Shown: piece by piece, positions 46,258-48,372 of the stretch
Layout of the letters: every line of letters starts with the position of its first letter
Position numbering within the stretch: position 1 is the stretch's first letter
From: Gemmatimonadales bacterium
GTDB taxonomy: Bacteria > Gemmatimonadota > Gemmatimonadetes > Gemmatimonadales > GWC2-71-9
Reading direction: 5' to 3'
Length of the DNA stretch: 64,000 bases
NCBI GenBank assembly: GCA_036262935.1
Contig: DATAHW010000089.1
Location: forward strand, 16,084-80,083
Program-made: the position numbers and the translations under genes
The notes under the pieces: generated by a model
The model's database searches: none
The model's input: only the letters and a program-made list of their open reading frames with translations
What the model was told of the DNA's origin: nothing

Positions 46258-48372
46258 CTACGGTGCCGACTCGTCGGGCTGCTCGCCTGCCGCGGCGCGG
46301 TGCAGCTCCACGCGACGGTTCGTGGCTCTCCCCGCCGCGGATCGGTTGTCGGCCATCGGGCGGGCGGCACCGAACCCACGCGTCACGATCCGGCGCGCAG
46401 GTACTCCCCGCCGCACGAGATAGCGGCTGACCGCTTCGGCGCGGGCGCGGGACAGGCGCAGGTTGGCGCGACGGGAGCCCGTCGCGTCTGAGTGCCCCTG
46501 GATCTCCACGATGAGTGCCGGCGTGCTTGCCAGCACGGCTGCCAGCGAGTCCAAGACGAAACGGTCCGCCGCGGGCACGTGGCGTGAGCCCCACCGGAAA
46601 TGCACCGGGGTGCGATGCGGGCCGAGAATCTCGCGGTCGAGATCGATGGTCTCGACCGGAGCGGTCGCGACGATGGCGGGCATGGCCGGCGCTGGCACGG
46701 GCGGCGCTGGATCGGGTGGAGACTCGATCGGCGGCGCGGCCGGCGCCGGCACGACGAGCCGCCGCAACACGATTTCGACCGGCGTGGTTCGGCCCTCGGG
46801 ACGAGTCTCCACTGACGCCGGAGCGCCGACCAGCTCCCAAGTGCCGGGCAGCAGGAACTCATTCGGCAGAACGGTGAGCGGGAGGCTGCGCTGACGGGAA
46901 TCGCGGAGGAAGAACGCCCCGTCGGCGTTGGTGAACACCACCTGCCCGCCGATATCGAGCGCTGCGCCTTCCACCGGCGCACCGTAGCCGTCCCGCACCG
47001 TGCCCCGCACGATGAACCGCGAGATTCCGCCCGGACTCATCAACGGCTGCGCGCCGATGGACGACCCCATATAGAGAAACGTGCGCCCCGAGGCGGTATA
47101 GTCCACGGCGCCGTCGGGCCGGATATAAGTCCCGAAGTTGGTCGCGTAGCTGCCCAGCTGCAGCCGCGCCGTCAGGTTGAGCGCGCTCCGGAACGGCTGA
47201 AACGGCTGGAACGGCTGGTGAACGATCTGGTAGTCCACCCCGAACTCACCGATGGCGGTGGCGAGGCCGGCGCCGAGCAGCACGGTGGCGCGGTGGCCCT
47301 GGTAGCTGATCTGCTGCATCAGTTCGAAGTGCGGTGATACACGCCAACGGAGATTGGCCAGCGGTGTCGTGCTGGCCGGCCGCCCTTCGGGACGGCTCTG
47401 CAGAAGGAACAGTTCGGCGTCCAGCCACGGGCTGAGCTCCCGGCCTACGGCCATGTACGAGCTCAGGTTCCTGATCCCCTGGGAGCGGGAATCATACAGT
47501 CCGGCGGTCACCCGCCACTCGTCGATTCGGCCTCCGGCGAAGGCGGAGTTGCCCACTGCCCGAATCGGCGAGCCGGCCTCGGACGAGTCCATCACGAAGT
47601 TCTGCCGCCCGATCCCCAGCGTCAGATCCTGGCTGAGCTGGTAGGTGAGCAGGATGTTCTCCCGGTCGCTCTCCGTCTGATTGGGCGTCGGCACCGCGAC
47701 GCGCCGGAACCCGTCGGGGTTCCAGGCGTACTGCGCCTTGAGCCCGAACCGCCCCTGCTGCAAGGCCACGCTGGATGCGGCATACCGCTGGTCCGCGCCG
47801 ACGCCGGCGGTGAGCGCCGTCGTCAGGTTCGGCGCCGGCTGCCACTCGATCCCCGGCATCACGGTCTGCCGATCCGCGACCACGGCGGTGCCGCTCAGCC
47901 GGACCGTCGGGGAGAGGCGGTGCTGAATGAAGAGCGCGCCGAGCGGCTGCTCTACGCTCGTCGGCTGAAACGACTGCGCGCCCAGCCCGCTCGAGCTGGC
48001 GCCGCCAAATACCGCGTAGGATGAGGTGCTGGTCCCGCCGGTCCAGCTCACCCCCTGTACCAGCAGATTGTGTCCGCCGGTGAAGATGTCGGTTGGGAAC
48101 CGGATCTGGAGGGCGTCGTTGCCGATCCGCAGCGTGTCCCGCCCGAGGCCGGTTCGCAGGAACGCGCCGATGCGCAGGCCGTCGAGATAGCCGATCCCCA
48201 CCCATCCATCCGAGCCGGGTCGCCAGAAGTTGGCGGTCGCGCCATAGCCGTCCGCCAGCGACGACCCGCCGCCCTCGAGCTGGACCACCGTCTGGGCCGC
48301 CAGGGGCCGGAGCGGCGCCGCCGCCGCAGCGCAGACGGCCAGGAAACACGGAGCAGCTCTGAGGTGGCGCAT
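46258..48372 (-). CDS. Outer-membrane beta-barrel protein fused to a CarboxypepD_reg-like beta-sandwich, Pro-rich linker and OmpA C-terminal peptidoglycan-binding domain; sits in the usher position of pilus locus A
   Basis: Signal peptide PLRPLAAQ. About 450 aa of alternating beta-strand sequence is followed by RFIVRGTVRDGYGAPVEGAALDIGG, PAPAAPPIESPPDPAPPVPAP, then IQGHSDATGSRRANLRLSRARAEAV..NRRVEL. Start is ATG 48372 (or 48393). Confidence 0.75.
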   Translation of the reverse strand: MRHLRAAPCFLAVCAAAAAPLRPLAAQTVVQLEGGGSSLADGYGATANFWRPGSDGWVGIGYLDGLRIGAFLRTGLGRDTLRIGNDALQIRFPTDIFTGGHNLLVQGVSWTGGTSTSSYAVFGGASSSGLGAQSFQPTSVEQPLGALFIQHRLSPTVRLSGTAVVADRQTVMPGIEWQPAPNLTTALTAGVGADQRYAASSVALQQGRFGLKAQYAWNPDGFRRVAVPTPNQTESDRENILLTYQLSQDLTLGIGRQNFVMDSSEAGSPIRAVGNSAFAGGRIDEWRVTAGLYDSRSQGIRNLSSYMAVGRELSPWLDAELFLLQSRPEGRPASTTPLANLRWRVSPHFELMQQISYQGHRATVLLGAGLATAIGEFGVDYQIVHQPFQPFQPFRSALNLTARLQLGSYATNFGTYIRPDGAVDYTASGRTFLYMGSSIGAQPLMSPGGISRFIVRGTVRDGYGAPVEGAALDIGGQVVFTNADGAFFLRDSRQRSLPLTVLPNEFLLPGTWELVGAPASVETRPEGRTTPVEIVLRRLVVPAPAAPPIESPPDPAPPVPAPAMPAIVATAPVETIDLDREILGPHRTPVHFRWGSRHVPAADRFVLDSLAAVLASTPALIVEIQGHSDATGSRRANLRLSRARAEAVSRYLVRRGVPARRIVTRGFGAARPMADNRSAAGRATNRRVELHRAAAGEQPDESAP

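Follow-up and report, generated by a model that had tools for sequence, protein, structure and literature searches.

A candidate chaperone-usher-like fibre operon with a minimal usher and an optional cell-wall anchor in soil Gemmatimonadales

Could an outer-membrane barrel with neither the recruiting domain nor the plug of a pilus usher nevertheless serve as one, and what is a peptidoglycan-binding domain doing at the end of the same chain? These questions are raised by ushA, the last of five genes in a locus, here called locus A, within a 64,000-nucleotide stretch of a Gemmatimonadales genome (assembly GCA_036262935.1, contig DATAHW010000089.1, positions 16,084 to 80,083 of the forward strand; “the window,” whose own numbering is used throughout). 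An earlier, sequence-only reading had proposed that its product, UshA, is a non-canonical usher or, alternatively, simply an OmpA-family porin co-transcribed with pilins. The current picture of an usher assigns recruitment of chaperone-subunit complexes to its N-terminal domain, gating of the pore to its plug and the holding of the growing fibre to its two C-terminal domains. We think it likely that ushA encodes the outer-membrane assembly and secretion pore of a divergent chaperone-usher-like fibre system, made from the single operon pilA1-pilA2-pilA3-chapA-ushA; the usher proposal was supported by structure (matches to FimD and PapC) and by gene context, and not by sequence.

The five genes of locus A lie head to tail on the minus strand, with intergenic gaps, from pilA1 to ushA, of 7, 60, 6 and 4 nucleotides (nt); lengths are in amino acids (aa) and models are from AlphaFold2 (AF2):

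50208..50759, minus strand: pilA1, pilin-like subunit, 184 aa; ATG at 50759, signal peptide ending AHAQA
49622..50200, minus strand: pilA2, paralogue of pilA1, 192 aa; hhalign of the pilA1 and pilA2 profiles, E 5.6e-58
49133..49561, minus strand: pilA3, short third pilin-like gene, 142 aa, optional in the family; by alignment
48377..49126, minus strand: chapA, periplasmic chaperone-like protein with two predicted immunoglobulin (Ig)-like domains, 249 aa; AF2 and Foldseek
46258..48372, minus strand: ushA, usher-like barrel, β-sandwich and OmpA-like domain, 704 aa plus stop; open reading frame, Pfam, AF2 and Foldseek

Predicted fold and domain layout of UshA

The computed domain layout of UshA is as follows, with the predicted local distance difference test score given as pLDDT:

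48295..48372, minus strand: signal peptide, residues 1-26, MRHLRAAPCFLAVCAAAAAPLRPLAA/QT cleavage, ending PLAA/QT; direct reading, A26 and Q27 conserved
47122..48288, minus strand: barrel region, residues 29-417, about 24 predicted transmembrane β-strands; AF2, hydrophobic alternation, Foldseek and segment lengths
47941..47994, minus strand: conserved 18-residue segment (127-144), between β6 and β7 by inferred numbering; length 18-19 in 65 of 65 relatives, pLDDT <50
47191..47217, minus strand: QPFQPFQPF motif, residues 386-394, three 9-nt repeats; direct reading, conserved in the family
47020..47121, minus strand: conserved 34-residue connector (418-451) from barrel to β-sandwich; length 31-38 in all relatives, pLDDT <50
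46756..47019, minus strand: periplasmic β-sandwich (452-539), CarboxypepD_reg/transthyretin-like; Pfam and AF2
46642..46755, minus strand: Pro/Ala-rich linker (540-577), with 13 Pro and 9 Ala in 38 residues; pLDDT <50
46297..46641, minus strand: OmpA C-terminal-like peptidoglycan-binding domain (578-692; Pfam match 592-686); PF00691

The AF2 model of UshA, built with 43 homologues (mean pLDDT 66, predicted template modelling score, pTM, 0.48), has 25 β elements between residues 29 and 417, and the strand count comes to a predicted barrel of about 24; the small barrel of 8-16 strands that would have spoken against an usher was not seen. The middle of the barrel (about residues 150-370) is modelled at pLDDT 68-91, except for the loop 221-230, and both ends are lower. 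Hydrophobic alternation, averaged over an alignment of 65 sequences, coincides with most of the predicted strands, those of low pLDDT included. When the model was compared with known structures by Foldseek, FimD and PapC were its best matches: they make up the first nine PDB entries (E 2e-12 to 3e-8), aligned over about 640 columns with template modelling (TM) scores of 0.32-0.40. After these nine ushers come isolated OmpA-like domains, with more PapC entries interspersed, and the one barrel among the first 50 matches that is not an usher is a porin with 18 strands (E 5.5e-6).

Ushers are described as five-domain proteins, consisting of an N-terminal domain, a 24-stranded barrel, an internal plug and two C-terminal domains, CTD1 and CTD2 (PMC8410936). 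No usher-like N-terminal domain had been visible in UshA in the sequence-only reading, and the model agrees, with its first strand starting 2-3 residues past the signal peptide. The open reading frame spans 46258..48393 (minus strand) and translation starts at the ATG at 48372 (MRHLRAAPCF...), so that only 7 open codons lie 5' of the start, which leaves no room for a hidden N-terminal domain; in the 65 relatives, the first strand is preceded by 6-47 residues, signal peptide included. The barrel thus follows the signal peptide directly, as had been claimed, but in the model it takes up about 390 aa (residues 29-417) rather than the 450 or so first estimated.

Nor does the barrel leave space for a plug. 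Its longest inter-strand segment is the 18-residue stretch 127-144, and among the 65 relatives no inter-strand segment of the barrel exceeds 25 residues, most being identical in length throughout; the idea that a plug or an N-terminal domain is hidden in some relatives was rejected, as 0 of 65 had either. Counting strands in the model, segment 127-144 probably sits at the classical plug insertion site between β6 and β7, and G124, S126, F135 and Q136 are invariant among Gemmatimonadales barrels. The longer segments of UshA (35-42, 91-100, 127-144, 218-231, 386-394 and 418-451; window 47020-48270, minus strand) are among its most conserved stretches, and all but 91-100 are modelled with low confidence; they may be docking sites or fold inwards into the lumen. 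One of them carries the QPFQPFQPF triplet that had been placed in a predicted loop. The 9-mer DNA repeat is as described (cagccgttc/cagccgttt/cagccgttc at 47217-47191), and the loop can be refined to a probable periplasmic turn by counting strands back from the periplasmic C-terminus. We rejected the motif as a hypervariable slippage repeat: P387 and F394 hardly vary among relatives of 23-49% identity, and the segment measures 8-12 residues in 65 of 65 relatives.

The remaining modules of the sequence-only reading, a β-sandwich, a Pro-rich linker and an OmpA C-like domain, were all recovered by Pfam, AF2 or direct reading. The β-sandwich had also been described as a plug-sized CarboxypepD_reg-like domain; such a domain is present, but it lies after the barrel, where ushers have their C-terminal domains, and not at the plug site. 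Its match to CarboxypepD_reg (E 6.7e-4, 20.4 bits) falls below the Pfam cut-off of 32.3 bits, and 56 of 65 family members match the same family. CooC_C, the C-terminal domain of the CS1-pilus usher, is weakly matched by 11 of the 65 relatives (best E 3.6e-4). Because of its post-barrel position and these weak CooC_C matches, the β-sandwich looks more like an usher C-terminal domain than like a plug; a plugging or gating role may nevertheless fall to it, there being no other candidate. Every family member examined has a single C-terminal β-sandwich, with no second one in the 545-aa core form, and in the connector that leads to it G421 is invariant and Y425 nearly invariant across the family.

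The operon, its relatives and the OmpA-like tail

The gene next to ushA had been read as a chaperone, and its model agrees with this: ChapA (AF2; pLDDT 68, pTM 0.52) is predicted to fold as two Ig-like domains of 8 and 7 strands, and its structural matches are mostly pilus chaperones, among them Caf1M, CupB2, CsuC, FimC, FaeE, EcpB, PapD, DraB, SafB and CfaA (E 1e-5 to 5e-7, target-normalised TM 0.42-0.56, 200-240 columns). These matches come from all three recognised classes of pilus chaperone (classical, archaic and alternative). WxLIP of Enterococcus ranks first; it and the Vpr fibril, unrelated β-rich proteins that score equally well, are the sole exceptions among the top-ranked matches. 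Pfam and NCBIfam gave no match for ChapA, and a PDB profile search nothing relevant. The spacing of the two genes is also as first described, with ushA starting 4 nt past the chaperone stop and the letters GTCC separating the TGA of chapA from the ATG of ushA.

In the pilin-like proteins the most conserved parts are a hydrophobic-alternating stretch just past the signal peptide (L36 and A38 near-invariant) and the C-terminal strand, in which G170-x-Y172-x-G174-x-L176...A180 of pilA1 is invariant in the family; judged by sequence, this pattern would be that expected of donor-strand-exchange subunits. A pilA2 gene is present in all related loci with upstream sequence, and a third pilin gene in some loci only (169-190 aa there), many relatives being without one. 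The pilA3 of the window is short (142 aa), and its C-terminal motif is eroded (LPVSPVRRILDLTAVTQ).

The closest relatives of the window, whose G+C content is about 70-74%, are Gemmatimonadales-labelled soil and metagenome genomes. An exhaustive profile search placed the barrel family at 933 clusters at 50% identity, 252 of them at E up to 1e-30, and most members are about 545 aa long. Wherever upstream sequence was available, in about 50 Gemmatimonadales loci, the barrel gene always comes after a chapA homologue and two or three homologues of pilA. The same company is found in four distant loci (L067-L070), on contigs of 54-61% G+C, where the barrels are 23-27% identical to UshA: a chapA homologue lies immediately 5' of the barrel gene in all four (chapA hidden Markov model, HMM, 1e-56 to 1e-60), and pilA homologues lie upstream in L067, L069 and L070 (pilA HMMs 1e-12 to 1e-19), while L068 keeps the chaperone-barrel pair and has its pilin-like gene downstream of the barrel. 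This gene context is the strongest model-independent evidence for an usher-like system. Two of the distant operons (L067, 290-1318; L069, 7657-8685) start with a 342-aa protein that has two pilA-like domains (HMM 1e-11 to 1e-12 each), a layout resembling that of a tip adhesin. One barrel relative, of five in a protein search, carries the source name Candidatus Eisenbacteria.

The OmpA-like domain of UshA matches PF00691 at E 9.6e-22 (77.6 bits against a cut-off of 27.2 bits). By sequence its PDB matches are the domains of OmpA, YiaD, Pal and YfiB (up to E 1e-16), and by fold it reaches a target-normalised TM of about 0.8 with those of OmpA, Pal and YfiB; the NCBIfam models YiaD, PA1041, YfiB, TssL, Pal, MotD and PorE match residues 590-690, none at its family cut-off. 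UshA keeps D629 (in GHSD) and R644 (in LSRARA), which, judged by their position in the motif and by the A. baumannii OmpA structures, would be the diaminopimelate-binding pair; they are conserved in 25 and 26, respectively, of the 27-28 aligned OmpA-bearing relatives.

The tail is present in 5-7 of about 50 species-representative genomes and in 4 of the 149 proteins that represent clusters. A rough neighbour-joining tree built on the barrel region splits the OmpA-bearing proteins into six groups, which implies at least six gains or losses. The OmpA tail is thus an optional accessory and not a defining trait of the barrel family. The C-terminus is a hotspot for modules more generally, P0263, P0299 and P0258 being examples: P0263 carries a SPOR peptidoglycan-binding domain (E 3.6e-14) and P0299 three CarboxypepD_reg stretches, P0320 has its OmpA domain after about 330 extra residues, and further unannotated tails of 100-250 residues also occur. 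The occurrence of two unrelated peptidoglycan-binding modules at the same position can be argued to mean that tethering to the wall has repeatedly been advantageous.

Converging on ushA from the other side are an FKBP gene and an OmpA-family lipoprotein gene (45029-46253, plus strand), the facing stop codons 4 nt apart. The lipoprotein gene is kept 3' of the barrel gene in many relatives, with or without an OmpA domain in the barrel protein. In the loci compared, carrying the tail was not correlated with having a second fibre-type locus (locus B, described below), having a third pilin gene or lacking the lipoprotein gene next door.

Proposed mechanism and alternative readings

In the mechanism that we infer, PilA subunits exported by Sec would be caught in the periplasm by the two-Ig-domain ChapA and handed to UshA, where donor-strand exchange would join them and the barrel of about 24 strands would thread them out. 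UshA would be a minimal usher, working with neither an N-terminal recruitment domain nor an in-barrel plug; its single C-terminal β-sandwich would dock the chaperone-subunit complexes, in the manner of usher C-terminal domains, and may also gate the pore. Here and in a minority of relatives, the 38-residue Pro-rich linker would carry the OmpA-like domain, whose presumed non-covalent binding to peptidoglycan would fix both platform and fibre to the wall.

Several results weigh against this reading, and most of them come from sequence comparison with known ushers. Pfam Usher (PF00577) was matched neither by UshA (E up to 10) nor by any of 65 relatives (E up to 0.01), hhalign of the 18- and 65-sequence barrel profiles against FimD gave a probability of <1%, and phmmer and profile hmmsearch against PDB sequences and NCBIfam matched no usher to UshA. 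When the UshA-family profile was aligned by hhalign to a profile of nine classical ushers taken from plasmids and E. coli K-12, the score was 31.7 (P 0.01), a value exceeded by 1 of 12 block-shuffled controls. The resulting alignment is collinear from the start of the FimD barrel to CTD2 and leaves the plug opposite a gap at query residues 124-130; we rejected it as evidence of homology because that one control had outscored it. Further, three of the five usher domains (the N-terminal domain, the plug and one C-terminal domain) are absent from UshA. The two AF2 models are of moderate confidence by the scores given above, and the first 6-7 and last 4 barrel strands of UshA stand at pLDDT <70 or <50. 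The pilin-like proteins are the weakest link: those of the window and of close and distant relatives had no Pfam or PDB sequence match, pilA1 had none in NCBIfam either, and the spore coat protein U family SCPU (PF05229) and DUF4402 (PF14352) were matched neither by the window pilins or eight relatives (E up to 1) nor by five distant ones. Since no sequence method ties the barrel to ushers, the claim that UshA works like an usher is better supported than its membership in the usher family, which is not established.

The missing domains would also fit a different role, in which UshA is a secretion pore or surface anchor and PilA is not polymerised by donor-strand exchange at all, being displayed, for example, as monomers or as a surface layer, with ChapA a holdase only. 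The usher domains that organise stepwise polymerisation, the N-terminal and the second C-terminal, are absent; the pilin-like proteins have no detectable similarity to solved pilins; and a peptidoglycan anchor would also suit a static surface anchor. We consider this unlikely all the same, as the chaperone-like fold of ChapA and the several paralogous subunits per operon match polymerising systems, and the two-domain subunit of the distant loci and the conserved N- and C-terminal strands of the subunits point in the same direction.

The second alternative, which the sequence-only reading had itself offered, is that UshA is a general porin or an OmpA-family tether between outer membrane and peptidoglycan that is merely co-transcribed with its neighbours. 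It is improbable and fits poorly, in that the barrel and the β-sandwich are constant while the OmpA domain occurs in a minority of members, the predicted strands number about 24 and not 8, and the structural matches are ushers. Linkage to the chaperone-like and pilin-like genes persists across the divergence of the family, for the chaperone-like gene down to 23-27% identity, and a separate OmpA-family lipoprotein is already encoded next door. What speaks for a porin or tether is the bona fide OmpA C-terminal domain, the label “OmpA family protein” given to homologues by their sources, and the very short inter-strand segments, which recall some structural barrels. The remaining possibility, that the usher-like fold is the spurious product of a mediocre model (in pLDDT and pTM, in its poorly predicted terminal strands and in TM to FimD) and that an unrelated large barrel such as a substrate-specific channel lies beside unrelated periplasmic Ig-fold proteins, would agree with the non-significant profile comparison with ushers, but we give it little credence because the alignment-based alternation supports the low-confidence strands too, two independent models (barrel and chaperone) indicate the same pathway, and the conservation of the operon is independent of any model.

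Beyond the single locus, we tentatively propose, as quite possible, a fourth and minimal chaperone-usher class that current annotation fails to see, widespread in Gemmatimonadota and represented in Candidatus Eisenbacteria at least, with an usher repeatedly joined to OmpA-like or SPOR modules; these would be the first wall-anchored pilus ushers. If this is true, a natural family that retains barrel, chaperone and subunits but has lost the N-terminal domain, the plug and one of the C-terminal domains would reveal what an usher can do without, and energy-free fibre assembly across the outer membrane could be studied in a minimal setting. That fusions to peptidoglycan-binding modules recur suggests a benefit in tying the base of the fibre to the wall. 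In addition, a fibre-system annotation could be given to three protein families that number hundreds of clusters in soil metagenomes and now go by “hypothetical” or “OmpA family protein.”

Neighbouring elements and relation to known systems

Upstream of locus A lies one candidate regulatory element:

50827..50842, minus strand: sigma-54-type promoter candidate TGGCACATGTATTGAC, about 70 nt upstream of pilA1

The motif GGCA(C/T)-N5/6-CTTGT occurs in 39 of 46 related loci (L007-L063), mostly 70-85 nt upstream of the first pilin gene. Across the window a loose sigma-54 pattern is found at chance level, and the evidence for a promoter is positional conservation only. The TTG start at 50831 that the list of open reading frames gave for pilA1 was rejected as too long; it overlaps the promoter motif, and both the homologues and the signal peptide favour the ATG at 50759. 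Sigma-54 activator motifs (GAFTGA and related strings) were not found in the window; in one distant locus (L070) a gene with Response_reg and Sigma54_activat domains lies nearby.

Directly upstream of locus A is locus B (51058-56175, minus strand), which encodes two DUF4402 pilins, then a protein of 283 aa at the place of the chaperone, one more DUF4402 pilin and a protein of 864 aa; a sigma-54-type motif (TGGCACAGAACTTGGT, 56254-56269, minus strand) lies about 80 nt upstream of its first pilin. The locus B pilins match DUF4402 (E 4e-7), one of them also weakly SCPU, and the 864-aa, usher-sized protein has a C-terminal CarboxypepD_reg/SdrD_B domain and no Pfam Usher match. Locus B adjoins locus A only in the closest relatives (L002, L003, L005 and L006). 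Between the two loci BLASTP and hhalign found nothing significant past the C-terminal strand of the pilins, the locus B alignments being shallow (four or five close sequences); in hhalign the pilin profiles match over their last 17-25 residues only (E 7e-4, probability about 25%), and the C-terminal motif of the pilA proteins resembles in type the G-x-Y-x-G-T-L/V-x-L end of the DUF4402/SCPU pilins of locus B. Genes for an extracytoplasmic function (ECF) sigma factor, a zf-HC2 anti-sigma factor and a DUF4097 “toastrack” protein (56649-58932, minus strand) lie upstream of the pilus loci, and in a relative without locus B (L001) this trio directly precedes locus A.

The comparison with FimD and PapC, the nearest structural matches, cuts both ways. 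UshA shares with them a predicted barrel of about 24 strands, a periplasmic β-sandwich after the barrel, and adjoining genes for a chaperone-like protein and small secreted subunits. It differs in having no sequence similarity to them, no N-terminal domain and no plug between β6 and β7, one C-terminal β-sandwich in place of two, short inter-strand segments of invariant length, and an OmpA-like tail, a feature that to our knowledge has not been reported in any usher. Our literature search, incomplete in its coverage, found no report of an usher with an OmpA-like fusion or of chaperone-usher systems from Gemmatimonadota, and nothing about DUF4402.

The archaic (sigma) systems, Csu of Acinetobacter and CupE of Pseudomonas, which have SCPU-type pilins, resemble locus A in their setting outside the enterobacteria and in having several small subunits, those of locus A resembling the locus B pilins in their C-terminal motif, and CsuC is among the matches of ChapA. 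However, for the archaic usher CsuD a model on FimD was possible over its full length with every domain (PMC9452303), whereas the UshA family is without three of these domains, and the locus A pilins match neither SCPU nor DUF4402.

An OmpA C-terminal-like domain is also common to UshA and to PorE of the type IX secretion system, TssL of the type VI secretion system, MotB and Pal. These are lipoproteins or inner-membrane proteins, whereas UshA is a predicted outer-membrane translocation barrel. PorE, like UshA, combines a carboxypeptidase-regulatory-like domain with an OmpA_C domain.

Finally, the OmpA and OprF porins share the layout of UshA, in which a single chain runs from an N-terminal barrel through a linker to a C-terminal OmpA-like domain, and homologues of UshA are annotated accordingly. 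Yet the UshA barrel spans about 390 residues and a predicted 24 or so strands against 8, it is followed by an additional β-sandwich, most family members have no OmpA domain, and the Pfam families OmpA_membrane and OMP_b-brl are not matched by UshA. Set beside all of these, locus A most likely encodes a chaperone-usher-like pathway, unannotated until now in soil Gemmatimonadales, with a minimal usher and an optional cell-wall anchor.

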